Below, piece by piece: positions 468 to 20,966 of a stretch of DNA of 64,000 nucleotides. Under the pieces are notes generated by a model. It was not told where the DNA came from, searched no databases, and was given only the letters and a program-made list of their open reading frames with translations. Position 1 is the first letter of the stretch, and each line of letters starts with the position of its first letter. This DNA is from an uncultured bacterium (GTDB taxonomy: Bacteria; Bdellovibrionota_G; JALEGL01; DATDPG01), in NCBI GenBank assembly GCA_964397255.1, contig CAYNHQ010000004.1:186480-250479 (forward strand). Reading direction: 5' to 3'. Position numbers and translations under genes: made by a program.

Positions 468-471
468 AATG
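452..471 (+). repeat. attL core: 20-bp sequence ccctgcgccgccaccaaatg at the tRNA 3' end, repeated exactly at 8353-8372
   Basis: Exact 20-bp direct repeat seen at both positions. Integrase gene lies immediately adjacent. Confidence 0.75.
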
Positions 472-565
472 CGTTCTAACTTCTCGTCATCAAAAAACTT
501 TTTCTTCAACGTAGGGTCAGTTGGGTAACTTTGGGTAACAGCTCGGGTTACTTTTACTTCGCTGC

Positions 566-1837: not shown

Positions 1838-2093
1838 ACTGCTGACTCCTCTCTGATAACCACCTGCGAATCACTTCGGAGCTGAAACGAACCATCCGCG
1901 GCGTAGGTCGGACCGTTGGGATCTTCCCCTGCCAGACTAAATTCCGAATGGTGCCTTTGCTGCATTGAAGGACTTCCGCCAATTCACTGACCGTAAGCAG
2001 TCGGCCTATTCCCTTTTCAAAGATCAAGCCCTCGCGAAGTTGAAATTTCCTCGGGCCGAATTGCGCGATCTTATCATCCTGCATGGGAAACAA
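1830..2093 (-). CDS. xis: AlpA/Xis-family excisionase-type helix-turn-helix DNA-binding protein
   Basis: 87 aa with MerR-like HTH LLTVSELAEVLQCSKGTIRNLVWQGKIPTVRP. Lies immediately upstream of int, overlapping it by 8 nt. This is the typical int-xis arrangement. Confidence 0.6.
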   Translation of the reverse strand: MFPMQDDKIAQFGPRKFQLREGLIFEKGIGRLLTVSELAEVLQCSKGTIRNLVWQGKIPTVRPTPRMVRFSSEVIRRWLSERSQQYG

Positions 2094-2114
2094 CCTTTCT
2101 TTTTCAAATCCTCA

Positions 2115-3488
2115 TCAGAAATCGATCTCCGGGCCGCTCTTTTTCTCGAGGCTCACGTCTCCGAAGAGCGTCAGCGTTTTTTCATTTTTTCGAACTGGTC
2201 GGCGAACCACTTCTGGTCTACGGGATTGAGATTGGGAATCACCTTCTCTTGAAACGTCCTCCAGAGAATCGCGTCCTGGTTCTCTTTCAGATAAAAACGC
2301 CAAATGGAACAGACGCTTACCGCCACCACCGCCATGGCGAGGTTCAGGAGAAAGAAGACCCCGATCGCTTTGAGCTTGATTCCGTTGTTGGCTTGTCGAA
2401 TATCCTCCAGAACGTCCTGCGCCCGTTCGCAGGAGGAGCGAAAGCTCTCGCCCGCCGATTGATAGGTTCGCTGTAGCTGCTGGCTTTCGACCTGCGATTT
2501 GTGGGTCATCTCCCTTAACGAATCGAGCAAGGGACAGATTTTTTTCTCGAAGTCGTTGGCCACGTTTTTGAAGCTCTCGTGAGAGATCTGGAGAAGGTAG
2601 GGCGGATCCTTTTCGGAACTGTTCGATGGCCTGGAAAAGTCTTGGGTCATCTCGGTTTTGGTCATAACTGATTCCTTTCTCTTGTTGTAAGCCGTGCCAC
2701 GTATAGGCTCGGCCGAGGTTACTTCCTTTCATCGATTCGCCGTCCAGACGAAAGCGAATTCCTGAAATGTGGCCGGTCTTGGCCTGGTACGGAGAGACAT
2801 CGACATGCTGGTCCTGAAGCCGTCCAATAAAATCACTCATCGTCGGCTTTCCCTGTGCCGCTTCGTCGATGATCTGTTGTAGTCGGAGCTTTGTACTTGG
2901 CTCGCCGGTCCGAAGAACCCTGTGCAACTCTCCGGAGGTCGGTGATCGTGAGAGCGATTCCCGGCTTGGCAGAACTCGGGTCAGTCCATGCTCCAATTCC
3001 AGGCTCCGAATGGTCGTTTCACTCCGGCGGTAGTCGTGACTTTCTGAAACGACTTTGCCGTCTATGCCGATTCGGTTTGCCACAATATGAATATGGTCGT
3101 GAGGCGTATCGGTGTGTCGGACGATCAGGAATTGCGATTTCTTAAATCCCATCCGGTCGAGATAGGTGTGCGCAACCTCGTTCCATTTCTGATCCGAAAG
3201 GCGCTCGCCGGGTGGTAACGAAAGGCTTGCGTGGTACACGGGCCTTTTCATGCTCGGTTTCAAATTCCGGACCGCTCCGAATTCGGCGATAAGGTCTTTC
3301 GGGGATCGACCGACCATGTTTCCGCCGATCTGCTGCGCACCCTCCTTCCCGAGAACATACTTAACGAGGCCGCCAAAACTCTTCCCTTTGGTCTGCTTAC
3401 CGATCACGCCAACCTCGATGCCAAAACGTTTAGCGCCAGGTTCTGAACGGCGGCGCTTATCTCTTCGAGCAGGCCGACGCCGACGCAA
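2115..3488 (-). CDS. mobA: Mobilization relaxase (MobA/MobL-type relaxase domain)
   Basis: Catalytic Tyr region GKSFGGLVKYVLGKEG and 3-His motif HTDTPHDHIHIVANRIG. The first ~28 codons of the ORF overlap the mobC 3' end, so the real start is probably near 3405-3420 (GTG or ATT). The C-terminal ~180 aa are low-complexity (R/S/G-rich) and overlap an alternative-frame ORF. Confidence 0.7.
   Translation of the reverse strand: MRRRRPARRDKRRRSEPGAKRFGIEVGVIGKQTKGKSFGGLVKYVLGKEGAQQIGGNMVGRSPKDLIAEFGAVRNLKPSMKRPVYHASLSLPPGERLSDQKWNEVAHTYLDRMGFKKSQFLIVRHTDTPHDHIHIVANRIGIDGKVVSESHDYRRSETTIRSLELEHGLTRVLPSRESLSRSPTSGELHRVLRTGEPSTKLRLQQIIDEAAQGKPTMSDFIGRLQDQHVDVSPYQAKTGHISGIRFRLDGESMKGSNLGRAYTWHGLQQEKGISYDQNRDDPRLFQAIEQFRKGSALPSPDLSRELQKRGQRLREKNLSLARFVKGDDPQIAGRKPAATANLSIGGRELSLLLRTGAGRSGGYSTSQQRNQAQSDRGLLSPEPRHGGGGGKRLFHLAFLSEREPGRDSLEDVSREGDSQSQSRRPEVVRRPVRKNEKTLTLFGDVSLEKKSGPEIDF
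2171..2665 (-). CDS. Hypothetical membrane protein encoded out of frame inside the relaxase gene (mobB-like nested ORF)
   Basis: 164 aa with balanced composition and a clear TM helix AIGVFFLLNLAMAVVAVSVCSIW. It lies entirely within the 3' third of the relaxase ORF in another frame. Confidence 0.3.
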   Translation of the reverse strand: MTKTEMTQDFSRPSNSSEKDPPYLLQISHESFKNVANDFEKKICPLLDSLREMTHKSQVESQQLQRTYQSAGESFRSSCERAQDVLEDIRQANNGIKLKAIGVFFLLNLAMAVVAVSVCSIWRFYLKENQDAILWRTFQEKVIPNLNPVDQKWFADQFEKMKKR

Positions 3489-3829
3489 CTCGCCTGCCCG
3501 GAATGAATGGCCTTTGTCAGCTGGTTGAGGTTGTTCCCGACGCGAGCAAGCTCTTGATACGCGGATCTATTGATCTCGGGTGCGGGAAGAGGCGGAAGTC
3601 TACGCTTCAATACCGCCCGCCGGACGTATTCGCTCAGGCTTAGGTGGAAAGCTCGAGCGCTCATTCCGATCTCTTTTCGTTCTTCCGGCGTGAACCGAAT
3701 GGGAACGACGCGAGTCCTCCCGCGAACGGAGTGAGTGGGACCGCAAATCGACGTAGTCGGTTTGCATGGCTCGCTACTCACTTCTTCCCACATTCTTTCC
3801 CCCTGCTTCTCTTCCCATTTCTTTTTCAT
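3404..3829 (-). CDS. mobC: Relaxosome accessory protein MobC (ribbon-helix-helix mobilization protein)
   Basis: VVPIRFTPEERKEIGMSARAFHLSLSEYVRRAVL...YQELARVGNNLNQLTKAIHSGQ matches the MobC signature (RxTxEE...SxSEYIR...GNNLNQ). Start taken at the internal ATG at 3827-3829 (MKKKWEE). The upstream part of the 276-aa ORF overlaps a plus-strand gene and is judged non-coding. Confidence 0.7.
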   Translation of the reverse strand: MKKKWEEKQGERMWEEVSSEPCKPTTSICGPTHSVRGRTRVVPIRFTPEERKEIGMSARAFHLSLSEYVRRAVLKRRLPPLPAPEINRSAYQELARVGNNLNQLTKAIHSGQASCVGVGLLEEISAAVQNLALNVLASRLA

Positions 3830-3926
3830 CTTTTTGTCTTTTCTCTCTACGCATCTGTGATATAACACATTTGAGGTACACCGTGTCAACGCATAGTTAC
3901 GTGATAAAATATAACGTTTTAAGCCT

Positions 3927-4760
3927 ATGAATGTATTCAAAAATTCCGGGCAGCCTCCGGAGCCAGGTGTCGCCCAGGCGGAGAAGCCTCGATCGAACTT
4001 GGTCGGAATGAATGTACGGCTGGAGCCATCCCTCAAAAAGGCGATCGAGGCAGTAACTTGGGAATCCGGAGTCTCCCCAGGCGGGCTCATTCGAAGGCTC
4101 TCGTTCCAGGACATCACGAGAAATGTTGCGAACCGATGGAAGGCCCCGGAGTGGATCAAAGAGGAGCCACGTGCAGCGAACCTGAATTTTCTTGTGCTTG
4201 CCCGACATTCGGAAGCGATTCGACTTCGAGCCAAGGAACTAAATTTAAGCCTGACCGACTACATTCGCTCGCTCGCCATTTTCCAGGTTTTTGAAGCTGA
4301 AAAAGTGTTCAAAGAAAAGGGTCAAAAATTAACAATCTTGGACGAAACCTCAAGACACTATTGGCCAACCCTCGAAGCAAAATCGAAAAAGAGTTGGCTA
4401 TCGAAATGGACAAAAAGCAAGAGAGACCCAGACCTTCAAGACCAATTTCTACGCGACGTCGAGGGCGTTGACATCGCCGCCGGATACACCACGTACAAAG
4501 GCAAGAAGATCATCGAGCTTGTGAAAGGCGAGGCAGAAAAAGAGGGCTTAAGTCTTGCGGCCTATCAAAAGAAGCTCGTGTATGAAGACCTGGAACGAAA
4601 ATATGGGATGAAATTTGTGGCAGAAATTCTCGACGAACCGTTTGAGCAATGGGAGATGTATGATGATTTTATAAAGCGTGTGATCGATGATACCGGAAAG
4701 GTGAATATGGAATTCCTGAAACTCAAATCCTCGGCAAAATCGCCGCATACGAAGAAGTGA
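3927..4760 (+). CDS. Hypothetical protein with two N-terminal ribbon-helix-helix (CopG/MetJ-like) motifs
   Basis: MNVRLEPSLKKAIEAV... and FLVLARHSEAIRLRAKELNLSLTDYIRSLAI resemble RHH beta-strand plus helix units. The K/E-rich C-terminal ~150 aa is of unknown function. 16-nt gap to the next gene on the same strand. Confidence 0.5.
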   Translation: MNVFKNSGQPPEPGVAQAEKPRSNLVGMNVRLEPSLKKAIEAVTWESGVSPGGLIRRLSFQDITRNVANRWKAPEWIKEEPRAANLNFLVLARHSEAIRLRAKELNLSLTDYIRSLAIFQVFEAEKVFKEKGQKLTILDETSRHYWPTLEAKSKKSWLSKWTKSKRDPDLQDQFLRDVEGVDIAAGYTTYKGKKIIELVKGEAEKEGLSLAAYQKKLVYEDLERKYGMKFVAEILDEPFEQWEMYDDFIKRVIDDTGKVNMEFLKLKSSAKSPHTKK

Positions 4761-4776
4761 TGGAGATCAAAACTCA

Positions 4777-6243
4777 GTGACTCTGAATGAACTACGCCGC
4801 CTTGTCCGTGAAGGCGAAGGCCCCGGACTGGAGTTCAAACGAACGACGGGAGAGCTGAGCCGCGGTTTAGAAACGATATGTGCTTTTTTGAATACGGAAG
4901 GTGGACAGGTTTTGTTCGGCGTCGGCCCCAAGGGGACGATCGAAGGGCAGCAAGTCTCATCCCAAACCCTGCATGAAATCACCCAGGCATTCAGCCGATT
5001 CGAACCGCCGGCGGTGATCAAGATTGAACGGGTCAAGATCGGAAAAGGGCGCGAAATACTTGTTCTAAACCCGAAAATCGATTCGGAGTCGCTGCCGTTC
5101 ACGTTTGATGGTCGCCCCTATGAACGAGTCGGAAACACGACTCGGAAGATGCCGCAGCACCGATATGAGTCCCTTCTTTTTGAACGGGCTCACGCCACGC
5201 GGCGATGGGAGAATCAACCCGCCGAGGGCGTGCGTCTCAAAGACCTCGATCACGAGGAAATTTTAGCAACAAGGGAAGCCGCCATTGCGCAACGGCGGAT
5301 CTCCGCAGGAACCAGCCGGGATATCGGAGACATCCTCGACCGACTCGGCCTTCGCGTCGATGGAAAGATCACGCAGGCAGCGCAAGTTCTCTATGGGACG
5401 AAGTTCTTGCCTTACTATGCCCAGTGCCTTCTAAAAATGGGAAGGTTTCGGGGAACAAAAATCACAGGGGAAATCGTCGACAACAAGCAAGAACATTTGC
5501 ACGCTTTCGCGGTCGTACGGGAGGGGATGGCATTTTTAGACCGAACGCTTCCGCTCGGCGCGCGTTTCCCCGAGGGAAAGATTTTCCGGGAAGACCGCCT
5601 TCCGATTCCTCCGAATGCGCTCCGAGAAATCCTTCTCAATGCGGTGATGCATCGGGATTATTCCGATTATGGTGGACACATTGCGATCGCGATTTTCGAT
5701 GACCGCGTCGAAATCAGGAGTGCAGGAAAGCTTCCGGCCGGCGTGACCGTAGATCAACTATCAGGTCCTCACCTTTCAAAACTCCGTAACCTTCTCATCG
5801 CTGGAACGTTTCACCGGACCGGGGCGGTCGAAATCTGGGGTCGCGGCACAGACCGAGTCGTGGACGAGTGCAAACAGCATGGAATCGATCCCCCGATTTT
5901 TGAGGAACGACAAGGGTTCCTGATTGTAACGTTTCGGGCGCAGGTCGTCGTTACCTCGCGACAGCTAGAGTCACAGCCAGAGTCACAGCTAGAGTCGCGG
6001 CCAGAGTCGCTCGATAGACGGGTTTTAATTTTCCTCGAGAACGGTCCTTTGGGAAAAGCGGAAATTGCGGCGCGTATGAGCCAAAAGAAAGTCTCTGGCC
6101 AGCTCAACAAGGTGATTCGGGAACTCGTGAGCGAAGGCCTAATCGTGTATACGATTCCTGAAAAGCCAAACAGCCGGTTGCAGCGATATCAGATAACCAA
6201 AGTAGGCAAAAAACTCTTGGAGAAGAACGGTGAAAGCGAATAG
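4777..6243 (+). CDS. Schlafen-like AlbA_2 (putative DNA-binding) + HATPase_c_4 (RecG C-terminal-like ATPase) + C-terminal winged-HTH protein
   Basis: N-terminus LEFKRTTGELSRGLETICAFLNTEGGQVLFGV (AlbA_2-like). Central LREILLNAVMHRDYSDYGGHIAIAIFDDRVEIRSAGKLP (HATPase_c-like). C-terminus DRRVLIFLENGPLGKAEIAARMS... (wHTH). Family assignment made from memory of motifs. Confidence 0.65.
   Translation: MTLNELRRLVREGEGPGLEFKRTTGELSRGLETICAFLNTEGGQVLFGVGPKGTIEGQQVSSQTLHEITQAFSRFEPPAVIKIERVKIGKGREILVLNPKIDSESLPFTFDGRPYERVGNTTRKMPQHRYESLLFERAHATRRWENQPAEGVRLKDLDHEEILATREAAIAQRRISAGTSRDIGDILDRLGLRVDGKITQAAQVLYGTKFLPYYAQCLLKMGRFRGTKITGEIVDNKQEHLHAFAVVREGMAFLDRTLPLGARFPEGKIFREDRLPIPPNALREILLNAVMHRDYSDYGGHIAIAIFDDRVEIRSAGKLPAGVTVDQLSGPHLSKLRNLLIAGTFHRTGAVEIWGRGTDRVVDECKQHGIDPPIFEERQGFLIVTFRAQVVVTSRQLESQPESQLESRPESLDRRVLIFLENGPLGKAEIAARMSQKKVSGQLNKVIRELVSEGLIVYTIPEKPNSRLQRYQITKVGKKLLEKNGESE
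5961..6008 (+). repeat. In-frame 12-bp tandem repeat x4 (acagctagagtc / acagccagagtc / acagctagagtc / gcggccagagtc) encoding QLES-QPES-QLES-RPES
   Basis: Seen directly in the sequence. Lies between the ATPase core and the C-terminal wHTH of the 4777-6243 gene. Confidence 0.9.
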
Positions 6244-6495
6244 GCGACTGAATTACGGCGCGGAATAGCGACCGTTTTGCAATGCCTCTCCTTTACACCT
6301 GGCCACCGGCCGCTGAAGTCTCCCCATTGATCCGCGACAGTTTCGCAGAGACATTCACTCCGCAGCCCTCGCCCTCAAAGAAAAAATATTAATGATATTA
6401 ATTGCTTATATCTGAAATCCATTCTCTATAAATGGCCTATTGAATGCATGGAAATAGTGTGACAATATGCGTCAATTTTTCGAACGAGGTGTGAG

Positions 6496-7299
6496 ATGAG
6501 AACGAAGTGGATGGCAATAACGATGGCTGCTCTGGCGACCGCGTCGGCGCAAGCGGCTTCTGAAAAATCCGATCGGATTTGTGGGTTTCCCGGCGAAGCG
6601 GGTCACAATATTGAGCAGAGAATTGCGGATTGCAAAGTGGCCTACCCATCCGATTCAACACGGAAGTCCGACACGTCGAACGCAACCATCTCGTTGGTGA
6701 CTCGCTTGATTTCAAACAGTGGAAAGTCGGAAGATGTTTGGAAAGAGATGCCTAGCGGCCTTCTATGGTCGGATATCATTAAGCGAGTGACTGATCCCCC
6801 GAGCGACAAAGCACCTGATTCATCGGAGAAGCCCAAAACTACTTATTCATGGAATGAACTCATAGAGTGGGCAAAGTTGAAAACGGAGCCAGGTTCGTTG
6901 GAGTTTTTGGATGACGTAGAAACATATAGATGGGTCGAGAGGAAATATTCTGGAGGCAAATCCGTAAAATTTGATGACCCCGCTGGGAAAACCGTTTGCC
7001 AACTCGCGACTGAGAAGTTGGCCGCAATGGGGGGGCTTAAAGATGTTCATTGGCATCTTCCGACAGCTGACGAGCTAGCCCACATCGGAAGGGTGGATCA
7101 GAGCCGTTACAACGAATACGAAAAGAAAAATATCACAGGGAATGGGCTTTTTGCGAAACTTCCGAACATGGCCGATCATTGGTTTTGGTCCTCGTCGCCT
7201 GCCGGTGGCGTCAACGCGTGGGGGCTCAGCGGGAGCTTCGGCGATGTCGTCAGCGACGACCGCGACTACGACGGCGCCGTACGTTGCTTGGGCCGCTAG
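6496..7299 (+). CDS. Secreted DUF1566 (Lcl C-terminal domain-like) protein with signal peptide
   Basis: Signal peptide MRTKWMAITMAALATASAQA. C-terminal motifs VHWHLPTADEL...FWSSSPAGGVNAWGLSGSFGDV resemble DUF1566. AT-rich promoter region upstream. Confidence 0.5.
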   Translation: MRTKWMAITMAALATASAQAASEKSDRICGFPGEAGHNIEQRIADCKVAYPSDSTRKSDTSNATISLVTRLISNSGKSEDVWKEMPSGLLWSDIIKRVTDPPSDKAPDSSEKPKTTYSWNELIEWAKLKTEPGSLEFLDDVETYRWVERKYSGGKSVKFDDPAGKTVCQLATEKLAAMGGLKDVHWHLPTADELAHIGRVDQSRYNEYEKKNITGNGLFAKLPNMADHWFWSSSPAGGVNAWGLSGSFGDVVSDDRDYDGAVRCLGR

Positions 7300-7322
7300 G
7301 CGTGGGAAGGGTCAGCTTAGAA

Positions 7323-7366
7323 GGGGACTATCAGTCCGTGATGGATTGATAGTCCCCTTTGATTTT
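7323..7366 (+). terminator. Rho-independent terminator after the DUF1566 gene
   Basis: Perfect 11-bp inverted repeat ggggactatca / tgatagtcccc (loop 13 nt) followed by tttgatttt. Confidence 0.7.
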
Positions 7367-7496
7367 CACCCGTTTTCGATGGATCGAAATCTCTTCGGGA
7401 ATCGCACGGAACTCGGTGGTCCAATCGACCAGCCGATCGAGGGATTCTTTCCGAAGTCGATAGCTTTGGGCATGAATCAGATAGCCGAGGCAGGAA

Positions 7497-8078
7497 TTGA
7501 GTTTTGCCAGGCGGCTCTCAGTTATTTTCGGCCAGCTGGGAAACGCGAGCGCCTGGGTACCCGGCAACATCACGGATAATGTGTACGCCGAAATCTTATT
7601 CCTACGCGAGCTGGAGAAAAAGGAGACTGCGCCCACTGGCAGCGCAACAGTTGCTGAAAAAGTTAAAGGACCCAAGAACATTCAAGAGGCTATTGCCAAT
7701 TCTATTCGATTCCTAACGCGAGAATTAAGCGGACATGTGAAACTCTTGAGCCAGCACAATCAGCCCAAGGAGCTCTATAAAGAGATGGCAATTGAACAAT
7801 CCGGGTATGGGATGATCTGTCCTTTAGGAGATGTTGGCCAATGTCTCCTCTTACCAAAGGCCATAAAGGACGTTCTTCCGATTCAGATGCAGCATCTCAC
7901 GCCCGAAGTGGAAAAGTTTGTAAAGGCCACTACCGGGAAACTCATATATTACGACCCCGCACTCTTCGCCCAACGGGTCAGAGAAGCGAACGAGAAACAT
8001 CAGCGTGAGATCATTCGCGAAGGTCAATTCGCCGCCGAAGCGCAACAAAAAGCAGTCGATCGGCAATTGAAGTGGTAG
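7497..8078 (+). CDS. Hypothetical protein (island cargo); true start uncertain
   Basis: 193-aa ORF with protein-like composition from ~VYAEILFLRELEKKE onward. No recognisable domain. Overlaps a probably spurious minus-strand ORF. Confidence 0.35.
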   Translation: MSFARRLSVIFGQLGNASAWVPGNITDNVYAEILFLRELEKKETAPTGSATVAEKVKGPKNIQEAIANSIRFLTRELSGHVKLLSQHNQPKELYKEMAIEQSGYGMICPLGDVGQCLLLPKAIKDVLPIQMQHLTPEVEKFVKATTGKLIYYDPALFAQRVREANEKHQREIIREGQFAAEAQQKAVDRQLKW

Positions 8079-8352
8079 CCCGACTTCATTTGGATCATTA
8101 AGAAGAACAATTGACCAGCGGGCTAGTCGATAGCGAGGTTAACTTGCCCATACTTCGTCTTTTTGGGATTCACACGAGGGATACCATTTGGTTCGCGGTA
8201 ACCCTTTCCCGTGTCTTGGGTAATTTTGGGTAACAGGCCGACTGATACGGAGTGAAATGGGTGCTACTCAGTGATACTGCAGGTTTTGTTATCTGCTTGA
8301 TGTTATTGTTTTTGCCTTACGATCCGAACCGTTGCGCGCCCGCCCCTGCAGG

Positions 8353-8372
8353 CCCTGCGCCGCCACCAAATG
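8353..8372 (+). repeat. attR core: second copy of the 20-bp tRNA 3'-end sequence
   Basis: Exact match to 452-471. Confidence 0.75.
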
Positions 8373-8375
8373 ATT

Positions 8376-8420
8376 TCCGAATACGGTATTCGGAATACAG
8401 AATTCAGTATTCTAAAAAAT
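8376..8420 (+). promoter_or_regulatory. Cluster of GAATAC/GTATTC half-sites including the perfect palindrome ccgaatac-g-gtattcgg; candidate operator/promoter upstream of the 8440 gene
   Basis: Sequence ttccgaatacggtattcggaatacagaattcagtattct...gagtattct. Lies immediately outside attR and 20-60 nt upstream of the start codon. Confidence 0.4.
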
Positions 8421-8439
8421 CGAGTATTCTGCCCCGTTC

Positions 8440-10032
8440 ATGTCGACCGAAATCCAGTCCGTAGGGAACCTCTCAGACACCCCCCTCCTTCAATTATTTC
8501 GATGGGTTACCGAGAACCACTATAGCGGGGTCATGATTCTTGCCCACGACGAAGTGAAGAAATCGATCATTTTTGAAAAGGGCCAGATCATCTCCGCTCG
8601 TTCCAACATTATGTCGGAGTGTCTTGGGCAGCTCCTGCTCGCTCAAGGGAAGATTACTCAAGCTCAGCTCACTCAATCGCTGACCAAAACCGATGCACAG
8701 GAATCCATGCGACATGGAGAGGTGTTGATTGCGATGGGACTAATCGACCATGCCCTTCTAAATGATTTTCTTCGAAGACAAGTGGAAGTACGAATCGAAG
8801 AAATTTTTTCCTGGAAAGAAGGGAAATACGGCTTTGTTGAGAAAATTCCGGAGGATGCGGCCCGCGTAAAAATCGAAGGCACACTTCTTGAGATCGCTCT
8901 TAGGGGTCTAATTCGGCGATATTTGAAACAAGAAGATACGAAAGCGCTGAGTCTTGATTTAAAGCCAATTTCGATTGGAGGACATGGTATTGAAATTGAG
9001 CAACTGAAATTAGTGGGTCGAGAGATGAGTCTGTTGAGAGCTGTTTCTGGTGTGTCGACAATGAAAGATATTATTACGAAGTCACGAATGGATGAGCCCA
9101 TGGCACGCGCAATGTTTCTGGCATTTCGCGACTTCGGAATGATTCGAATCGGCGACACCGCTCCGCAAACTTCTCCCAGCACCCGATCTACCCCTCCGCC
9201 CCCACGCGAATCTTCAAAGCCGGCCCCTGCGCCATCATCTGCCACCGCATCGAAGCCGAGTACTCCGGCTCCGCAGACCCCGGCCACCAAAGGATTTAAC
9301 CCGGAGGAAATAGCCGATCGACTGGCCGCCGCGCAAACGCAAACCCTTTTCGATCTCTTAGGGGTTCCGCGACAGGCGACAACCGACGATATCAAGAAAG
9401 CCTATTTCGATCTTGCCAGGAAGTACCACCCCGATCGCTTGCCACCGAACATGTCCCCCGAAGATCGAAAAAATGCGGAAGCTCTATTTGCTCGAATTAC
9501 CGAAGCACAGACCAGGCTTACCAATCCTTCTTCGCGAAAAGAATATGAGGCCTCACTTGAATTGGAGGCGAGCGGGGTCGGGTCGGGACAAGTGAATGCG
9601 GTCCTGGAATCGGAGGCGGAGTTCCAGAAAGGGACGGCTCTTTTGCGGAAGGGGGATTTCAAAGGAGCTATGGAGGCTTATCAAAAAGCAATATCGCTTT
9701 ACGAAAAAGAACCCGAATATTTTTCACAGCTGGGTTGGGCGATGTTTCGTCAGTCGGCGAAGACGAAAAATGCCGCGGAACATGCGAAAGCAAAACGGGC
9801 GGTGGAGACGTCGATCAAGATGAATCCGAATTTGGCGCAATCGTATTACTACCTGGGCATGATCACGAAGACCGACGGCGATCTCGAAATGGCCAAGAAA
9901 CTGTTCAATAAAGCGGTAGAAATGAATCCAAAAAATGCGGAAGCGACTTCCGAACTCCGACTCATCAATTCGCGTCTGGAGAAGGAACATAAGGGAGGAC
10001 TTAAAGGGCTCTTTAAGAAAAAGGAAGCATGA
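8440..10032 (+). CDS. DUF4388-like N-terminal domain / J-domain (DnaJ) / TPR-repeat protein
   Basis: J-domain YFDLARKYHPDRLP (HPD motif). Pro/Ser-rich linker. C-terminal TPR-like repeats (AMEAYQKAISLYEKEPEYFSQLGWA..., AQSYYYLGMITKTDGDLEMAKKLFNKAVEMNP). N-terminus resembles the DUF4388/PATAN fold (from memory). Confidence 0.65.
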   Translation: MSTEIQSVGNLSDTPLLQLFRWVTENHYSGVMILAHDEVKKSIIFEKGQIISARSNIMSECLGQLLLAQGKITQAQLTQSLTKTDAQESMRHGEVLIAMGLIDHALLNDFLRRQVEVRIEEIFSWKEGKYGFVEKIPEDAARVKIEGTLLEIALRGLIRRYLKQEDTKALSLDLKPISIGGHGIEIEQLKLVGREMSLLRAVSGVSTMKDIITKSRMDEPMARAMFLAFRDFGMIRIGDTAPQTSPSTRSTPPPPRESSKPAPAPSSATASKPSTPAPQTPATKGFNPEEIADRLAAAQTQTLFDLLGVPRQATTDDIKKAYFDLARKYHPDRLPPNMSPEDRKNAEALFARITEAQTRLTNPSSRKEYEASLELEASGVGSGQVNAVLESEAEFQKGTALLRKGDFKGAMEAYQKAISLYEKEPEYFSQLGWAMFRQSAKTKNAAEHAKAKRAVETSIKMNPNLAQSYYYLGMITKTDGDLEMAKKLFNKAVEMNPKNAEATSELRLINSRLEKEHKGGLKGLFKKKEA

Positions 10033-10517
10033 ACGGCCCGCCCTCACTTCTGTTTGAACTTCATATCGCTATACTCGTGGTCGGAGTTCTCTTATTTCTG
10101 TTTGCGTCTCTCTCTTCGCTGATTTATTTGTTGGCGCAACGCCAACTGAAAAGTCGGAAGTTAGAGCCTTGGTTTCGCCGGCTTCCGCCGCTCGAGACCA
10201 TGGACCGTTGGACCGTGCGCGCTCTCATTCTGGGATTTGTTTCGTTGACCATCGGCATTGTCTCGGGAATTTATCTCGCCCATTTGGTGTGGCCCGCGGC
10301 CTGGATCCATGACCCCAAAGTGATTTGTGCGGTGGCCACGTGGGGATGGAATGTCTTGATTCTAATCGTTCGGTATCGACGCGGCTGGCGAGGGGCCAAG
10401 TTTTTTGCGCTCATTCTCGTTGGCTTTTTGTTTCTTTTGCTGACGTTTTTAGGAGTTTTCTTTGTGTTCCCCGCAGAACCTCATCGGATAGCCTCTGTAT
10501 GGATCTCGTTGTATTAG
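10029..10517 (+). CDS. hemX: Small polytopic membrane protein, HemX/CcsA (cytochrome c assembly family)-like, upstream of hemA
   Basis: Four predicted TM helices. W-rich segment WPAAWIHDPKV...ATWGWNVLILIV. Position upstream of hemA, ATGA-coupled to the preceding gene. Shorter than the canonical HemX. Confidence 0.35.
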   Translation: MNGPPSLLFELHIAILVVGVLLFLFASLSSLIYLLAQRQLKSRKLEPWFRRLPPLETMDRWTVRALILGFVSLTIGIVSGIYLAHLVWPAAWIHDPKVICAVATWGWNVLILIVRYRRGWRGAKFFALILVGFLFLLLTFLGVFFVFPAEPHRIASVWISLY

Positions 10518-11782
10518 GCGTGAATCACCGGACGGCGCCGCTGGAGGTTCGCGAGCGGCTCGATTTTTCGAAATATCCGCGCGAGGATTATCTTTCAAAA
10601 CTGGCCGGACAAAGCTCCGTCCGTTCCGGAATGGTTCTTTCGACGTGTAATCGCGTGGAAGTCTACGCCATGGGGAACAACGCCGAACGACTCCTGACGG
10701 ATGCAGACGAATTTCTTCGTATCTTTCATGGTCTAAGAAAAGGCGAAATTGAATCTTTTCTTTACAGCAAATCCAACATGGATGCCGTACGGCATCTCTT
10801 CCGAGTGGCCGCGAGCCTGGATTCGATGATTGTGGGCGAACCTCAAATCCTGGGCCAAGTGAAAGAAGCCTATTTTGCTTCCAGTGCCGCCTCTTTGGTG
10901 GATCCTATTTTTGATCGGCTTCTTCGGAAGACCTTTTCAGTGGCGAAGCGAGTTCGCAATGAAACCAATATCGCAGAACAGGCCGTGTCGATTAGTTACG
11001 CGGCCGTGGAGTTGGCTACCCACATATTTGGAAGGCTTGAAGGGAAGAAGGTGATGATTTTAGGGGGCGGGGAGATGGCTGAACTCGCTGCCCGTCATTT
11101 TTCAAAAGAAAACGTGGGCAAAATATACTTTGCAAACCGGACCTACGAATCGTCGGTCGAGCTTGCGAAAGAATTTAATGGGATCCCCATTCCGATCGAT
11201 CAATTTTCAAAAGACATTTTTGAAGTGGATATTCTTCTCGTTTCCACGGCCGCTCCTCACTATATGGTTCACGTAGGAGAAGTCGCCCGGGCGCTGGAAA
11301 TGCGGAAACAGGAACCAATGTTTTTCATCGATATCTCCGTGCCCCGGAATGTGGATCCGGCCATTAACGCCCTCGAAAATGTTTATTTGTACAATATTGA
11401 TGACCTTCAAAATGTAGTGGCCAACCATAAGGAAGCTCGCGCCCAGGAAGCGGAAAAGGCGGAAGCAATTATCGAACTGGAGATCAAACGTTTCTATGAG
11501 GCGATAGAGAGAATGAAAGTAGGCCCGATGATCGAGTCGCTGCAGGAAAAAGCCGAAACCGCCCGGCAAATGGAACTCTCCCGGCTTTCGAAACGACTTA
11601 AAAATGTGACGGCGGAGGAGATGGCCGAAATAGAGCGCGCGACCGAGTCCCTCGTTCGAAAAATTCTTCACGACCCGATCCAATTTTTGAAAGAAGACCC
11701 CAACGAAATGTCGCAGGCCGAGCGGACGGTCCTTTTTCAATCGATTTTCGGTCTTCGAAAAGAAAGCGAAGGGGAAGAGTGA
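10499..11782 (+). CDS. hemA: Glutamyl-tRNA reductase
   Basis: MDLVVLGVNHRTAPLEVRERL...LSTCNRVEVYA... with NAD-binding MILGGGEMAELAARHF. Start moved to the internal ATG at 10499; the track ORF from 10325 carries an implausible N-terminal extension overlapping hemX. Confidence 0.9.
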   Translation: MDLVVLGVNHRTAPLEVRERLDFSKYPREDYLSKLAGQSSVRSGMVLSTCNRVEVYAMGNNAERLLTDADEFLRIFHGLRKGEIESFLYSKSNMDAVRHLFRVAASLDSMIVGEPQILGQVKEAYFASSAASLVDPIFDRLLRKTFSVAKRVRNETNIAEQAVSISYAAVELATHIFGRLEGKKVMILGGGEMAELAARHFSKENVGKIYFANRTYESSVELAKEFNGIPIPIDQFSKDIFEVDILLVSTAAPHYMVHVGEVARALEMRKQEPMFFIDISVPRNVDPAINALENVYLYNIDDLQNVVANHKEARAQEAEKAEAIIELEIKRFYEAIERMKVGPMIESLQEKAETARQMELSRLSKRLKNVTAEEMAEIERATESLVRKILHDPIQFLKEDPNEMSQAERTVLFQSIFGLRKESEGEE

Positions 11783-12708
11783 AGCTCCGTGTGGGAACGC
11801 GGGGAAGCTCTCTCGCTCTCGCGCAAAGCAAGCTTCTTCAGACGCAACTGGCCCAACAAAATCCGAATCTGAAATTCGAAACGAAAGTCATAAAAACCAC
11901 CGGCGATGAAGCAATTAATCGCCCATTTTCCGCCATCGGCGGGCGCGGAGTGTTTACGCGTGAACTGGACGAGGCGCTCTCCAAGAATGAAATTGATTTT
12001 GCGGTTCATAGTTTGAAGGATCTCACGTCCGAATTTATTCCGGGGGTGATGTTGGGCGCGGTCACCGCTCCAGCGGATCCTCGCGATGTCGTGGTCTCCC
12101 GTAGCGGGCAGCCTCTGGGTGAACTTTCGAAAGGCGCTGTGGTTGGAACCGCAAGCCTGCGGCGCACGGCGCTTCTCAAATCCAAATATCCTCATCTCAA
12201 GATCGAAATGCTCCGAGGCAATATCGATACGCGTCTTCGTAAAGTGGCGGAGGGAACCTACGACGCGATCGTGATCGCGGCGGCGGGGCTCATTCGTCTC
12301 GGCTGGGAATCCAAAATCACCGAGTTTCTCGATCCCAAAGAATTTGTCCCCGCGATTGGACAGGGAAGACTGGCTTTGACCTGCCGAACGTCGGACATGG
12401 CTACCCGTCGAGTGATTGAGACGGTCGATGATTCCGCGAGCCATCGCCTCGCCCGAATGGAGCGAATCTTGATGCAAAGGCTCGAGGGAGGATGTCTCGT
12501 CCCCATCGGTTGTTACGGGGAAGAGAGGGAGGGAAGGGTGATCCTCTATGGGTATCTTGGAATGCCGGATGGGAAAAGGGAGATTCGCCGGACCGTCGAA
12601 GGACGGGTAACCGACGCCGAAAAACTGGCGGAAGATTTGGCAGCTCAGATGCTCCAGGGTGGCGGCAAAGAAATGCTGGAGGAACTTCGCCCGGGAGTGA
12701 CGAAATGA
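11779..12708 (+). CDS. hemC: Porphobilinogen deaminase (hydroxymethylbilane synthase)
   Basis: MKLRVGTRGSSLALAQS...FAVHSLKD... dipyrromethane cofactor region. ATGA overlap with hemA. Confidence 0.9.
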   Translation: MKLRVGTRGSSLALAQSKLLQTQLAQQNPNLKFETKVIKTTGDEAINRPFSAIGGRGVFTRELDEALSKNEIDFAVHSLKDLTSEFIPGVMLGAVTAPADPRDVVVSRSGQPLGELSKGAVVGTASLRRTALLKSKYPHLKIEMLRGNIDTRLRKVAEGTYDAIVIAAAGLIRLGWESKITEFLDPKEFVPAIGQGRLALTCRTSDMATRRVIETVDDSASHRLARMERILMQRLEGGCLVPIGCYGEEREGRVILYGYLGMPDGKREIRRTVEGRVTDAEKLAEDLAAQMLQGGGKEMLEELRPGVTK

Positions 12709-13493
12709 AGCGAGCTCTCGATGGAAAGAGGGTGGTACTGACTCGTCCACGAGATGCCGGAGATGTTTGGAGAAAAGCGTTTGAGCAACATGGAGCGGAG
12801 GTGATTACGATTCCAGTCACGGAGTTCGCACCTCCCAGTTCCTGGGAAGAAGCTGATCGGGCGATTGAAGAATTGACGAGCTTTCGATGGGCCGTCTTTA
12901 CCAGTCAGGAAGCGGTTCGGCGATTGTTCGGTCGACTGCGGGAAAAAGGGAAGCCTTGGCCTATGCGAATGCGAGTGGCCGCAGTCGGTGAAAAAACGGC
13001 GGCCGAGCTAACTTCGGCCGGCTATCGTCCGGAAGTTATTCCCGAAAGCGCCAATGGGAGCGAAGCTCTCGCGAAAACCATTTTGAATCGCGGGCCGATC
13101 AACGGCGTTGCCATTTTGTTTCCCCGTGCCGAAGAGGGCAGCGAGACATTGATCGATGAACTCAAACGATTCGGGGCTACGGTGGTGATGGTCCCGGTAT
13201 ACAGAACTGAAACCAACGCCAAATCAGGTCAGGCGGTTCGGAATCTCCTCCGCCAAAATATCCATTGGGTCACTTTTGCCTCCGGTTCAGCGGTTCGTGC
13301 TTTCTTTTCCCTCGGGGGGAAAGGTGCTGTACTTTCTTGGATTCACGAAAAGGGTATAAGGATCGCGGTGCTGGGTGCAACGGCTGCCGAGGCTCTTTCC
13401 AAGCAGGGGGGAGCGTGTACCGTACGTGCATCACACCCCACCGTGGAGGCGTTGGTGGAAACCGTCGTGAACTATGAAAGTGAGACAGGATGA
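12705..13493 (+). CDS. hemD: Uroporphyrinogen-III synthase
   Basis: HEM4-like. Start at the internal ATG (MKRALDGKRVVLTRPRD) overlapping the hemC stop as ATGA. The track ORF from 12492 has a spurious R/G-rich extension. Confidence 0.8.
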   Translation: MKRALDGKRVVLTRPRDAGDVWRKAFEQHGAEVITIPVTEFAPPSSWEEADRAIEELTSFRWAVFTSQEAVRRLFGRLREKGKPWPMRMRVAAVGEKTAAELTSAGYRPEVIPESANGSEALAKTILNRGPINGVAILFPRAEEGSETLIDELKRFGATVVMVPVYRTETNAKSGQAVRNLLRQNIHWVTFASGSAVRAFFSLGGKGAVLSWIHEKGIRIAVLGATAAEALSKQGGACTVRASHPTVEALVETVVNYESETG

Positions 13494-14458
13494 CGAAGAA
13501 AACTTTTTATCGGGGTCGTAGGCTTCGCCGAAATGAAGAGGCCAGGAATTTTTCGCGTGAAACGTGGGTGACTCCTTCGGATCTTATATCGCCTATTTTT
13601 GTGACCGAAGGAAAAGGAGTTCGGCAGGCCATCGATTCGATGCCGGAGATTGAGCGTTACTCGGTCGATCAACTCGATAGCGAATTGGAAGCGGTTTTCG
13701 CTGCGAAAATTATGTCGGTTCTTCTCTTTGGCGTTCCAAAAGACAAGGATGCAAAGGCCTCTGGCGGTTGGAAGGAGAGCGGAGTGGTTCAAGAGGCAAT
13801 TGCGCGAATCAAGAAGATGGCGCCCGCGATGAACGTAATTACCGATGTTTGCCTATGCGCGTATACCGATCATGGACATTGCGGACATCTCAAGAATGGA
13901 ATCGTGGACAATGACTCTTCGCTTGAGACTCTGGCCCAAATAGCGCTCTCACATGCCAGAGCGGGCGCTGATTTTGTCGCACCTTCCGACATGATGGATG
14001 GGCGTGTTGCCGCGATTCGGGAGAAACTGGATGAGAATGGTTTTCAAAATCTTCCCATTCTTTCTTATTCAGCGAAATACGCCTCGGCCTTTTATGGACC
14101 TTTCCGCGAGGCGGCAAAATCGGGTGCTAAGGAGGGAGACCGGAAGAGCTACCAGATGGATCCTCCCAATGTCCGCCAGGCTATGCGTGAAATTGCGGCG
14201 GATATAGATGAAGGAGCGGATATGGTAATGGTAAAGCCGGCACTGGCCTATCTGGATGTCATTCGTGTCGCTCGCCAGCGTTTCGACACGCCGATCGTGG
14301 CTTACAATGTGAGCGGCGAGTATTCGATGGTGAAAGCCGCCGCGGAGCGGGGCTGGCTGGATGAAAAATCCGTCGTTCGTGAAATTTTAACAGCCATCAA
14401 ACGCGCCGGTGCCGATCGAATCGTTACTTACCACGCCAAAGACTTTGTCCGCGCGTAA
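13490..14458 (+). CDS. hemB: Porphobilinogen synthase (delta-aminolevulinic acid dehydratase)
   Basis: ALAD signature ...VMVKPALAYLDVI...SGEYSM.... ATGA overlap with hemD. Confidence 0.9.
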   Translation: MTKKTFYRGRRLRRNEEARNFSRETWVTPSDLISPIFVTEGKGVRQAIDSMPEIERYSVDQLDSELEAVFAAKIMSVLLFGVPKDKDAKASGGWKESGVVQEAIARIKKMAPAMNVITDVCLCAYTDHGHCGHLKNGIVDNDSSLETLAQIALSHARAGADFVAPSDMMDGRVAAIREKLDENGFQNLPILSYSAKYASAFYGPFREAAKSGAKEGDRKSYQMDPPNVRQAMREIAADIDEGADMVMVKPALAYLDVIRVARQRFDTPIVAYNVSGEYSMVKAAAERGWLDEKSVVREILTAIKRAGADRIVTYHAKDFVRA

Positions 14459-18695: not shown

Positions 18696-20966
18696 TTAGC
18701 GAGTGGCTTCCAAGAGGGCGCGCCAGGGTGGCATGTAGCGAGGCTCGATTTGAAGCGACTCTCGCCATTTTGCGATGGCTTCTGCCTTGTCTTTCTTGGC
18801 CATTGCAATATCTCCCAAACCCGCCAGCGCGCGATAGTTCCAAAGAGAGTCCTTTGCCGCCGTATTGAACTCAGTAGAAGCGTCGTTCCATTTCTTCATT
18901 TTGAGGTAGGTCATTCCGAGCCAATAGTGGGACATGGCGCTTACCGGATCATTCTTCACGGCTTGTCGAAAAGCTGTTGCCGCCGCGTCCCAGTTCTTCA
19001 GGGCGAATTGGGTTCGTCCCCAATAAATATGGGGATATTCGAGAGAGGGTGCCAATTCACGCGCACGCTGAAAGGGTCGAAGCGCCGAACGAATTTTCTC
19101 CACATTTTGCTCCGCTTCGCCTTGCGTAAGTCGAAGAAGGCCCAAAAGAGCATGCGCCGTCGGCTCCGTCGCTCGCGAATCTACGAGTGACGAAAATCGG
19201 TGATCCAATGTGCTCCAGGGTGGGCTCCATTCTTCCATGGAGGGAGAGTCCCAGAGGTCCGACACGGGAGCCAGACCCGCCTTCGTAGCAGCCGCGCTCG
19301 CCACATCTAAAGCTTCATCCGGCTCACTCTTTTGCAGGATGAGTCGAGCCAAAAAGAAATAGGGAAGAATCCAATTGGGAGCGATGGAGAGAGTCTCGCG
19401 ATAACCTCGTAACGCTTCATTCACGGTCGCGAATCTTTCCTGTGTTCGGGCGAGAGCTAGACGAAGCTCGGAGTTATTGGGTTCCGTCTTACTCGCGTCT
19501 CCAAGCGTGGCCAACGCCTCGCTTGGACTGCCCAACGCCTCGAGTACGGATGCGCGAGAGATGGCAAATTGTGGAGAGGAAGCGAGAAGAGGTGGGAATT
19601 GATCGACAAGATCTTTGGCTTCTCCAGGACGGCGAGTACGCAGGAGAATTCGAGTCAACATTCGCTGGGCACCGAAAATTTCCGACGTATGGGCGAATCG
19701 CCGGTAACGCGTCAGGATTTCACGTAAGTGCCGCTCGACTATGGGATGGGCCTCCTCTTCATTTTGGAGAAGACGACAGAGGGCAAGGCGGCTCGGAACA
19801 AAACTCGGCTCGGCTCGAAGCGACTCCTGATACCACTCCATCGCTGCGGATTGGTTTTCGGCGCGTTCATCCAGAAGCCCCATTCGATAGGGTGCGGCGG
19901 GATCGTTGGGAGCGCGGGTCATACGCTGTTCAAAGAAACCGCGCGCTTGATCAGGTTCCCCCCGAAGAAAATAACCCATTCCCGCGACGTCATATCCTTC
20001 CAAAAGGGTGGGATCGGTTTGCAAACCTTGGGTCGCCTTTGAAATGGCGAGTGAAATTTCCTGAGGTTCTTTCGCCTTTGCCAGCAAAATGGCTGCATAC
20101 GTGATGAGAAGCGCCCCGCTTCTTGGAAAAAGGGTTTCTGCTTTTTGTGCCGCCTCAAGTGCTAAGGAGAAGTTGTTTGCAGATAATGCACTTCGAATTT
20201 TTGCAATGTAACCTTCGGGCTGATTCGGACTAATCGATAGAGCGAGGTCGGCAATATCAAGCGCTGTCACTTGCAATCGAGGTTCATCACCCAACTCGGA
20301 AGAATAGGCGTACGCCACCGCAAGATTCCCAAGGAGATTCCCATTTTCCGGATCGAGTGTGAGCGCCTGTTCCAAAAGACGCCGTGCCGATTCATAGGCT
20401 TCCGGATGGTTACTTTGCAGGAGCGCTTTTCCATTCTCGAAAAGTACATCGGCGGAACGATTGGCGGCGGGTATTTGCTCCCGAAGTTGAGCTACAAGCT
20501 TATCCCTGAGGGGAAAAGTGGAATGGGAGGTAGGTTGATATCGAACCACGCGGTAGAGCGTCCAAGCGATGGCGCTGGAGAGAAGAGCGACAAGAAAGAA
20601 TTGGAAAAACCACCGGGACGAGAATGAAAATCGCCCAAAACTTTTAAGCGGCGATATGGTGGCTGCTTGGCGATATCGCAGGGTTCGAAATGCATCCTGA
20701 AACGCGCGCAATGCGTTCGCTTGGCTCCGGTTGCCGTCGGGAAGGACGATCAAATCCGTCGGGAGAATGAGTCCTTGAAGGATCCACTGGCGTACTGCTC
20801 CTTCGGATTCGAGTTCAAAGTCTTTGCCTTCTTTGATGACTTTCCAGACCGAGCGAGTTTCCGGTTCAATCTCAATCCCGGGATCGGTGCGACAATCAGG
20901 ACAGACGGGGATGATATCATCCGCTTCTCCCTCAAATTGCGTTCCGCAGCTGATACAGGTACGCAT
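18696..20966 (-). CDS. Zinc-ribbon / TM / TPR-repeat protein
   Basis: N-terminus CISCGTQFEGEADDIIPVCPDC (zinc ribbon). TM segment FFQFFLVALLSSAIAWTLY. Multiple TPR-like repeats in the C-terminal 550 aa. Confidence 0.55.
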   Translation of the reverse strand: MRTCISCGTQFEGEADDIIPVCPDCRTDPGIEIEPETRSVWKVIKEGKDFELESEGAVRQWILQGLILPTDLIVLPDGNRSQANALRAFQDAFRTLRYRQAATISPLKSFGRFSFSSRWFFQFFLVALLSSAIAWTLYRVVRYQPTSHSTFPLRDKLVAQLREQIPAANRSADVLFENGKALLQSNHPEAYESARRLLEQALTLDPENGNLLGNLAVAYAYSSELGDEPRLQVTALDIADLALSISPNQPEGYIAKIRSALSANNFSLALEAAQKAETLFPRSGALLITYAAILLAKAKEPQEISLAISKATQGLQTDPTLLEGYDVAGMGYFLRGEPDQARGFFEQRMTRAPNDPAAPYRMGLLDERAENQSAAMEWYQESLRAEPSFVPSRLALCRLLQNEEEAHPIVERHLREILTRYRRFAHTSEIFGAQRMLTRILLRTRRPGEAKDLVDQFPPLLASSPQFAISRASVLEALGSPSEALATLGDASKTEPNNSELRLALARTQERFATVNEALRGYRETLSIAPNWILPYFFLARLILQKSEPDEALDVASAAATKAGLAPVSDLWDSPSMEEWSPPWSTLDHRFSSLVDSRATEPTAHALLGLLRLTQGEAEQNVEKIRSALRPFQRARELAPSLEYPHIYWGRTQFALKNWDAAATAFRQAVKNDPVSAMSHYWLGMTYLKMKKWNDASTEFNTAAKDSLWNYRALAGLGDIAMAKKDKAEAIAKWRESLQIEPRYMPPWRALLEATR

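Follow-up and report, generated by a model that had tools for sequence, protein, structure and literature searches.

A PATAN-J-TPR co-chaperone gene ahead of a half-size hemX in a haem biosynthesis gene cluster of a Bdellovibrionota-related lineage

Organization of the gene cluster

The window analyzed here is a stretch of 64,000 nucleotides from an uncultured bacterium (assembly GCA_964397255.1, contig CAYNHQ010000004.1, positions 186,480 to 250,479 of the forward strand), and all coordinates below refer to it. At 8440-14458, six consecutive and closely packed open reading frames are found on the plus strand. The first (8440..10032) encodes a protein of 530 residues with PATAN (DUF4388), J and TPR domains, a predicted class-C J-domain co-chaperone that is called the J protein in the following. 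It is followed on the same strand by a half-size hemX of the CcsA/PF01578 family (10029..10517), hemA for glutamyl-tRNA reductase (GluTR; 10499..11782, 427 residues), hemC for porphobilinogen deaminase (11779..12708), hemD for uroporphyrinogen-III synthase (12705..13493) and hemB for porphobilinogen synthase (13490..14458). The association of this J gene with hem genes is undescribed; it is supported by genomic context from one lineage and has counter-examples.

The first-pass annotation of this DNA had reported six plus-strand genes with these domains and overlaps, and the list of open reading frames, Pfam, NCBIfam and the junctions read from the sequence all agree with it. Of the four overlaps that it gave as ATGA, those of J/hemX (10029-10032, where the hemX start overlaps the J stop codon by 4 nucleotides), hemC/hemD (12705-12708) and hemD/hemB (13490-13493) are as described; the hemA/hemC junction at 11779-11782 is GTGA instead, so that hemC starts with GTG and not ATG. 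The hemX/hemA junction is a 19-nucleotide overlap, with the hemX stop codon at 10515-10517. The longest reading frame of hemA opens at 10325; since the N-terminus shared with its relatives (MDLVVLG.NH.TAPLEVRE) begins at the ATG at 10499, the start is placed there. The starts of hemA, hemC, hemD and hemB all match the N-termini of relatives. No Shine-Dalgarno sequence is evident ahead of the J or hemA start codons. A promoter consensus scan within the cluster gave 5 sites against 5.5 expected, without excess over shuffled sequence, and a terminator scan gave nothing conspicuous between the genes and no more matches than shuffled sequence. The 6 genes very probably form one operon, in which the J gene would share a transcript with the hem genes and be coupled to them in translation.

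HemA matches TIGR01035 with 444.7 bits (cutoff 209.55) and contains GlutR_N, Shikimate_DH and GlutR_dimer; HemC, HemD (HEM4, 190 bits) and HemB (ALAD, 480.6 bits) also score far above their Pfam and NCBIfam cutoffs. These genes would be expected to act as usual, HemA making glutamate-1-semialdehyde and HemB, HemC and HemD carrying 5-aminolevulinate on to uroporphyrinogen III. The acidic C-terminal tail of HemA (ending in ESEGEE in the window) was considered as a ligand of the TPR module and rejected, as such tails also occur in unrelated loci, are absent from two linked loci (L004 and L011) and are not specific to the clade described below.

Domain architecture of the J protein

The domains of the J protein were identified with Pfam and in an AlphaFold2 model built on 23 family members, which has distinct domain boundaries and a mean predicted local distance difference test score (pLDDT) of 87.4. 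The PATAN/DUF4388 domain (residues 9-153, 8464..8898; PF14332, 69.9 bits, cutoff 25) is modeled with a pLDDT above 90 and, together with a small helical domain, occupies residues 1-237. A Pro/Ser/Thr-rich linker at residues 240-284 (9157..9291), predicted to be disordered from a pLDDT below 50 and variable in length in the alignment, leads to the J domain at residues 303-370 (9346..9549; PF00226, 61 bits, cutoff 27.8; residues 288-377 in the model). The HPD motif of this domain (residues 330-332, nucleotides 9427-9435) is invariant at H330, P331 and D332 in the 8 orthologues aligned and is present in most family members, and J-domain matches in the PDB reach down to E = 1e-16. Residues 392-505 (9613..9954) match several Pfam TPR families; in the model, three repeats and a capping helix fill residues 382-518 and are followed by a short terminal helix.

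No Pfam match to the DnaJ zinc finger (PF00684) or the DnaJ C-terminal domain (PF01556) was found in the J protein, the G/F region is also absent, and the DnaJ equivalog models of NCBIfam match the J domain only, far under their cutoffs. By this domain content it is a class-C J-domain protein, and from the intact HPD motif we infer that it recruits DnaK. In a Foldseek search, the TPR module resembled generic three-TPR modules (consensus TPRs, SGT, RPAP3 and Hip) with target-normalised TM-scores of 0.8-0.89. FLU, the plant regulator of GluTR, was neither among the best 60 PDB sequence matches nor among the best 50 Foldseek matches of the module. The carboxylate clamp of Hop TPR1 is formed by a Lys/Asn pattern. 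By eye, its residues are absent from the J protein, and with generic TPR matches only, a FLU-like or EEVD-clamp TPR was rejected.

The PATAN domain includes an alpha-clip insertion at residues 62-114 (nucleotides 8623-8781), over which NF053729, an NCBIfam model of the MshE-related cyclic di-GMP (c-di-GMP) motif, reaches 34.1 bits and falls just short of its cutoff of 38. The insertion was compared with the MshEN-type motif, a tandem of the 24-residue pattern RLGxxLLxxGLIxxxxLxxxLxxQ. Motif 2 of the window protein (RHGEVLIAMGLIDHALLNDFLRRQ) fits the pattern fully and motif 1 has no Arg; in orthologues the first position is H, G or L, that is, Arg is not conserved. The Arg at this position is critical for c-di-GMP binding in MshEN.

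The protein ends in a basic-hydrophobic tail, KGGLKGLFKKKEA (9994..10029), a putative membrane-targeting helix. Its KGGLKGLFKKK form is kept in orthologues, and proteins P0002-P0031 of the wider family share the consensus G-[IL]-[LF]-G-[RK]-[LI]-F-K-K; the tail is a trait of the family and not specific to the haem-linked members. It resembles the amphipathic membrane-targeting helix of MinD, and because of this resemblance the J protein may act close to the membrane. This analogy suggests that the whole PATAN-J-TPR family is peripherally membrane-bound through its C-terminal tail.

A half-size HemX

The HemX-like protein of the window has 162 residues and matches PF01578 with 88.5 bits over profile positions 72-206 of 212 only. 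It has four hydrophobic segments; hydropathy and charge place its K/R-rich loops (residues 26-64 and 115-127) on the predicted cytoplasmic side and its WWD-like loop (WPAAWIHDPK) on the predicted periplasmic side. Members of the HemX family are described as having eight transmembrane helices (PMC5801465). The window protein is thus a PF01578 membrane protein encoded next to hemA, as expected for HemX, but its four segments depart from the eight-helix topology. It aligns to the C-terminal half of HemX proteins of 285-288 residues in L001, L011 and L012, and short and long forms have in common a transmembrane His and the motifs LPxLExxD, GxYxAHxxW and GWRG. A tblastn search for the N-terminal half elsewhere in the window found nothing better than E = 0.4.

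Short HemX proteins with the same boundary and motifs, of 138-163 residues, occur in at least 9 lineages. Besides the window, these include L004, L005, L006, L014, L020, L173, L174 and apparently L172, where the contig ends within hemX; the forms in these relatives have 138-158 residues. As a word-indexed homologue search returned only 11 matches, an exhaustive search of 1.84 billion cluster representatives was used instead, and about 20 short forms were found among its best 150 matches. The nearest relatives of the short forms are the C-terminal halves of long ones, at 47-51% identity, and the two forms are interspersed on the trees of both J and HemA; hence repeated loss of the N-terminal half of HemX is the parsimonious explanation. 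The HemX of the window appears to be a genuine four-helix half-size form and not a pseudogene. The first-pass annotation had called it truncated, which holds for its size and not in the sense of a damaged gene, as this four-helix form is conserved and recurs in the clade.

For comparison, a metagenome scan with a HemA profile gave 80 other hemA loci, with HemA identities of 40-48%. It can be seen that hemX lies directly upstream of hemA in 68 of them, so that this order, which had been taken as an unusual departure from a Bacillus-like arrangement, is the common one. The two genes overlap by 4 nucleotides in 32 of the 68 loci with scorable hemX, and every untruncated hemX reading frame (59 of 59) is 260-459 residues long. 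The close association of the two genes agrees with published data, according to which gtrR has hemX as its neighbour in 94% of 113 genomes (PMC5801465).

The contexts of 3 distant short HemX proteins were looked up, and 2 of them have the J gene upstream. In the other context (L175/L176, 2296-5260), a hemL-like aminotransferase gene, a half-size hemX of 158 residues and hemA all overlap, without a J gene, and the HemX has a better preserved WWD-like motif (WGDFWYLDPRQ). Because this locus carries a short hemX without a J gene, four-helix HemX would have arisen more than once, and short HemX is not strictly tied to the J gene.

A fusion of the J protein to HemX by read-through or frameshift was also considered and rejected. 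In 6 of 10 relatives hemX is in frame with J directly past the J stop, which is not significantly above one third. A G_AAA_AAG heptamer lies at 10017-10023 of the window, just past the last stop in the hemX frame (TAA, 10014-10016); it merely encodes the KKK of the family-wide tail, and a -1 slip on it, which would fuse the two proteins, is purely speculative.

Conservation of the J gene ahead of hemX

In a family search, close full-length relatives of the J protein were found at 35-49% identity, one of them named as a Bdellovibrionota metagenome-assembled genome (MAG). Linked loci were collected from genomic-context look-ups and a scan of species-representative genomes and scored by tblastn with the window proteins. 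The J gene lies at most 15 nucleotides upstream of hemX in 11 further lineages (L001/L002/L003, L004, L005, L006, L011, L012, L014, L020, L172, L173 and L174), with J identities of 30-49%. Their gene order is J, hemX, hemA, hemC, hemD, plus hemB where the contig permits, and the gap from J to hemX is 1-15 nucleotides, except in L174, which has a 4-nucleotide overlap as in the window. L011 is a Bdellovibrionota chromosome (OY764265), and L014 and L020 are Bdellovibrionota MAGs with J identities of 31% and 30% and HemA identities of 36% and 39%. L173 (J 33%, HemA 39%) and L174 were found through the contexts of the distant short HemX proteins. Therefore, the J-TPR gene is syntenic with hem genes in relatives, as the earlier proposal of a functional link required. 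The J proteins of these loci form a clade apart from the distant ones without haem linkage in 100 of 100 neighbour-joining bootstraps. The placement of J before hemX is apparently an innovation of a single Bdellovibrionota-related clade, inherited in at least 12 lineages; the link to Bdellovibrionota is taken from the names given to related MAGs.

The whole neighbourhood, however, has been kept in this clade. In the linked genomes, mreBCD, pbp2, rodA and a divergent thioredoxin gene (trx) are conserved upstream, and DUF1015, sua5, purE and purD downstream; the unrelated flanking genes trx, rodA, DUF1015, sua5 and purD have been kept as well as the J-hemX pair, to the same evolutionary depth. 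Since unrelated genes are included, the conserved J-hemX synteny is weaker evidence than it appears. Over the genomes compared, the clade seems insufficiently diverged to have scrambled this region.

The PATAN-J-TPR family in other genomic contexts

The PATAN-J-TPR family is large, with 417 confirmed matches in species-representative genomes. Outside the haem-linked clade, none of about 70 family loci examined shows haem linkage, and conversely no J homologue was found upstream of hemX in the 45 other hemX-hemA loci that have at least 1.7 kb of upstream sequence. Elsewhere the J gene adjoins glnE (L016, L019 and L021), a pair of genes for an IF-2B/mtnA-like protein and a class-IV aminotransferase (Aminotran_4; ilvE-like; L013 and L017), a tRNA synthetase gene 19 nucleotides downstream (L009 and L010), or PilZ/REC genes (L007, L008 and L171). 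Some distant homologues carry REC domains or adjoin PilZ genes. Judged by these contexts, close spacing with unrelated housekeeping genes is typical of the family.

The origin of the haem-linked gene may be read from one of these contexts. In two sister lineages, the J gene lies between the IF-2B/mtnA-like and class-IV aminotransferase genes: L013 (8872-12619) and L017 (8857-14009), the latter of which has two tandem PATAN-J-TPR paralogues. In the window, the same two genes (IF-2B, 43857-44906; Aminotran_4, 42901-43824; both minus strand) adjoin each other without a J gene between them. The pair flanks J in the two sister lineages and is contiguous in the window, which points to a transfer of J to the front of the hem operon in a common ancestor of the clade.

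One close relative has a different setting. P0004 (L171) is 45% identical to the J protein of the window over 99% of its length and is nested within the haem-linked clade in 100 of 100 neighbour-joining bootstraps, yet it is not haem-linked, and its contig contains no hem genes. Its operon (50-4627) consists of genes for a PilZ-PATAN-TPR protein (733 residues), a response regulator (127 residues), the J protein and an unknown protein of 146 residues, joined by 4-nucleotide overlaps or an 8-nucleotide gap. These neighbours suggest that the PATAN-J-TPR family also occurs in a setting of c-di-GMP/two-component signalling.

Interpretation of the J-hem association

The reading favored here, for which we put the chances a little short of even, takes the J protein for a general adaptor and supposes that the hem operon captured its gene. 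It would be a membrane-proximal adaptor that recruits DnaK through its HPD motif to partners selected by the PATAN and TPR domains. Its gene would have been relocated from another site, and the main consequence of co-transcription with the hem genes would be shared expression. The first-pass annotation had proposed a dedicated J-protein in control of GluTR; that claim is not borne out by a large family beside unrelated genes, the nested P0004/L171 without haem linkage, and flanking genes that are equally conserved.

Several points weigh against an incidental capture. Class-C J proteins are often encoded beside their clients, as is hscB in the isc operon. The J-hemX pair has been kept together when the upstream neighbourhood changed, from trx/rodA to tRNA-Met and a mobile element in the window, and the hemB side also differs among relatives. 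Half-size HemX occurs in 9 of the 12 J-linked lineages compared with none of the 59 sampled loci elsewhere, an enrichment that hints at functional interplay. In addition, HemX, a membrane protein that lowers GluTR abundance in Bacillota, acts on GluTR through an unidentified multiprotein mechanism, into which a DnaK-recruiting partner would fit (PMC5801465).

The strongest alternative is dedicated control of GluTR, the proposal of the first-pass annotation widened to take in HemX, which is regarded as possible but less likely. A tail-anchored J protein would use its TPR or PATAN domain to bind HemX and/or GluTR, and would load DnaK onto GluTR; this loading would set GluTR stability (by hand-over to Lon, Clp or FtsH) or activity according to haem sensed by HemX. 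Such control would be consistent with a J-hemX junction that stays tight in 12 lineages, even where identity falls to 30% for J and to 36% for HemA, and that has outlasted rearrangements on both sides. The apparent origin of the J gene at another site, the interspersed distribution of a HemX without its four N-terminal helices among the linked lineages, the J gene upstream of 2 of 3 distant short-HemX representatives, and the fact that the mechanism and partners of HemX are unknown and called 'multiprotein' (PMC5801465) point in the same direction. However, all this is genomic context within one clade and amounts to essentially one evolutionary event, in which unrelated flanking genes were conserved equally. 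Elsewhere the family tightly adjoins unrelated housekeeping genes, P0004/L171 is nested in the clade and yet not linked to haem genes, and L175 combines a hemL-like gene, short hemX and hemA without a J gene. The TPR module has generic matches and none to FLU, the acidic HemA tails are not specific to the clade, and a link between HemX and a J-domain protein was not found in the literature searched.

A more specific form of GluTR control is doubtful, and we consider it slightly less probable still: the J protein would be the missing cytoplasmic effector of HemX, held at the membrane next to a minimal four-helix HemX whose WWD-like loop senses haem, and loading DnaK onto GluTR for inactivation or degradation. 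If true, the Hsp70 system would be part of the feedback control of tetrapyrrole synthesis, and the repeated dispensability of the N-terminal half of HemX in this clade would be explained.

It is improbable, though compatible in part with the captured-adaptor reading, that the J protein is a co-chaperone of type IV pilus, secretion-ATPase or cell-pole machinery, perhaps tuned by c-di-GMP via the MshE-like alpha-clip, for which the operon partners are irrelevant. PATAN-REC regulators bind PilB and PilC, and SgnC is needed for social motility (10.1101/2021.06.11.447907). The NF053729 match over residues 62-114, at 34.1 bits and below the cutoff of 38, the shared operon of P0004 with a PilZ-PATAN-TPR protein and a response regulator, and the distant homologues that carry REC domains or adjoin PilZ genes would agree with such a role. 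But the Arg at motif position 1 is not conserved in orthologues, and no pilus genes lie beside the J gene in the window, where about 43 kb separate it from a Tad-like secretin and ATPase. These are a Tad/Flp-type secretin gene (Secretin, T2SS-T3SS_pil_N and BON domains) and an adjoining T2SSE ATPase gene on the minus strand at 52854-55540.

That the short hemX is decayed or the overlaps are wrong start calls is very improbable: the HemX reading frame matches the Pfam profile over its C-terminal two thirds only and no evident Shine-Dalgarno sequence precedes J or hemA, but the short form recurs in at least 9 lineages with the same boundary and motifs and among about 20 of the best 150 cluster representatives, and hemA, hemC, hemD and hemB start where the N-termini of relatives do.

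The way in which HemX acts on GluTR has been open since 1994, its mechanism being called undefined and probably multiprotein (PMC5801465, PMC10991733). A J co-chaperone gene joined to hemX across a bacterial lineage is therefore a testable candidate for a HemX partner, and the minimised four-helix HemX is a candidate marker of which half of HemX is essential. Should the link be incidental, the locus still illustrates clearly how a biosynthetic operon can capture the gene of a housekeeping co-chaperone, and it shows that adjacency in a single clade should not be taken as function.

Region upstream of the J gene and other features

At 391-8372, tRNA-Met is the insertion site of a 7.9-kb integrative mobilisable element, which ends on the right 67 nucleotides before the J start codon and now separates tRNA-Met from the J gene. 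The tRNA-Met (391-467) was identified with Rfam. The last 20 nucleotides of tRNA-Met form attL (452-471), and a plus-strand copy of this 3' end, attR (8353..8372), marks the right edge of the element; the direct repeat 452-476/8353-8377 is 92% identical, with 20 nucleotides fully so. The element carries genes for an integrase (566-1837), a MobA/VirD2 relaxase (2115-3488) and NikA/MobC (3404-4234), all on the minus strand, and further a Schlafen/AlbA_2-HATPase_c_4-Fic-like_C gene (4777-6243), an Lcl_C-domain gene (6496-7299) and an unknown reading frame of 193 residues (7497-8078). Another repeat, TTGGGTAAyTTTGGGTAACAG, is present at both 521-541 and 8216-8236 and may represent an arm-type site. 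Within the Schlafen/AlbA_2 gene, 3-4 tandem 12-nucleotide repeats (ACAGCyAGAGTC, 5961-6008) encode QLES/QPES repeats.

Between the element and the J gene lies a perfect 21-bp palindrome, TTCCGAATACGGTATTCGGAA (8375..8395, no strand assigned), which is unique in the window (0.01 matches expected by chance) and absent from the upstream regions of relatives. In 8375-8430 it is followed by GAATAC-N8-GTATTC and one more GTATTC. The palindrome could be an operator or a tRNA-proximal RNA hairpin. A regulatory RNA upstream of J was considered and rejected, as tRNA-Met is the only Rfam match across the whole window and the fold of the leader RNA is not unusual (z = -1.3).

In relatives (L001, L004, L005, L006, L011, L012 and L014), the short stretch between the thioredoxin and J genes carries conserved TGTCAAC and (G)TGGTA motifs at variable spacing. 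Because TGGTA is only 12-20 nucleotides from the J ATG, this suggests a very short J leader in these genomes. In the window, a copy of TGTCAAC...TATGATATT stands upstream of tRNA-Met instead (355-375).

The window further encodes large TPR proteins (18696-20966 and 32773-34035) and a TPR-Ser/Thr kinase (29100-31082).

Comparison with known systems

The closest counterpart of the hem genes is the HemX-GluTR system. HemX lowers GluTR post-transcriptionally in Bacillus subtilis and Staphylococcus aureus, with an undefined mechanism, an unknown partner and a multiprotein process proposed (PMC5801465, PMC10991733). As in B. subtilis hemAXCDBL (Schroder 1994) and S. aureus HemX-GtrR (Choby 2018, PMC5801465), a PF01578 HemX in the window adjoins, and is probably co-transcribed with, GluTR and the uroporphyrinogen genes. 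Unlike the B. subtilis operon, the window has the order hemX-hemA, as in most non-Bacillota loci sampled, and its cluster contains no hemL. Unlike the HemX of Bacillus and Staphylococcus, that of the window has four predicted helices, not eight. The J gene ahead of hemX also sets the window apart, since none is reported for any HemX operon in the literature searched, where no link between HemX and a J-domain protein was found.

The same Pfam family, the transmembrane His and the WWD-like loop are shared with CcsA (ResC), the System II cytochrome c synthase. Unlike CcsA, the HemX of the window scores 74.7 bits with TIGR03144 against a cutoff of 187.6, its WWD motif is degenerate (WIHDPK), and its gene adjoins hemA without a nearby ccsB/resB partner.

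Post-translational regulation of GluTR is known from several organisms. In plants, its regulators are FLU (a TPR protein), GBP, cpSRP43 and Clp. A TPR factor and a chaperone/protease setting the GluTR level would match these if the dedicated model holds; with FLU, however, the TPR module of the window shares only generic TPR similarity, in sequence and fold. In Salmonella, GluTR is degraded by Lon and ClpAP (PMC5801465). The first-pass annotation had stated that HemA stability is controlled by chaperones and proteases in several bacteria: control by proteases (Lon and ClpAP) and by HemX is documented (PMC5801465), while control by chaperones is not documented in the literature searched, where no role of a bacterial J protein or of DnaK in GluTR control or turnover was found.

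In its N-terminal part the J protein resembles PixG, PixE, PatA and SgnC, which likewise have a PATAN/DUF4388 domain with an alpha-clip insertion. The alpha-clip resembles the N1 repeats of ATPases of type II secretion systems and type IV pili; PATAN-REC regulators bind the pilus motor proteins PilB and PilC in cyanobacteria, and the PATAN protein SgnC is needed for social motility in Myxococcus xanthus (10.1101/2021.06.11.447907). Unlike in PatA-type regulators, the output of the window protein would be a J domain and TPR module, not a receiver domain, and pilus genes do not adjoin.

Specialised class-C J proteins include the membrane-anchored DjlA and the HscB of the isc operon in bacteria, and the TPR-plus-J proteins DNAJC3 and DNAJC7 in eukaryotes; DNAJC3 is among the PDB sequence matches to the J protein. 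As in these four, an HPD J domain is joined to a targeting or client-binding module. The window protein differs from all of them in having a PATAN domain and an amphipathic tail at its C-terminus, and its order, J then TPR, is the reverse of that in DNAJC3 and DNAJC7. HscB shows that the gene of a J protein can lie within the operon of the pathway that supplies its client.

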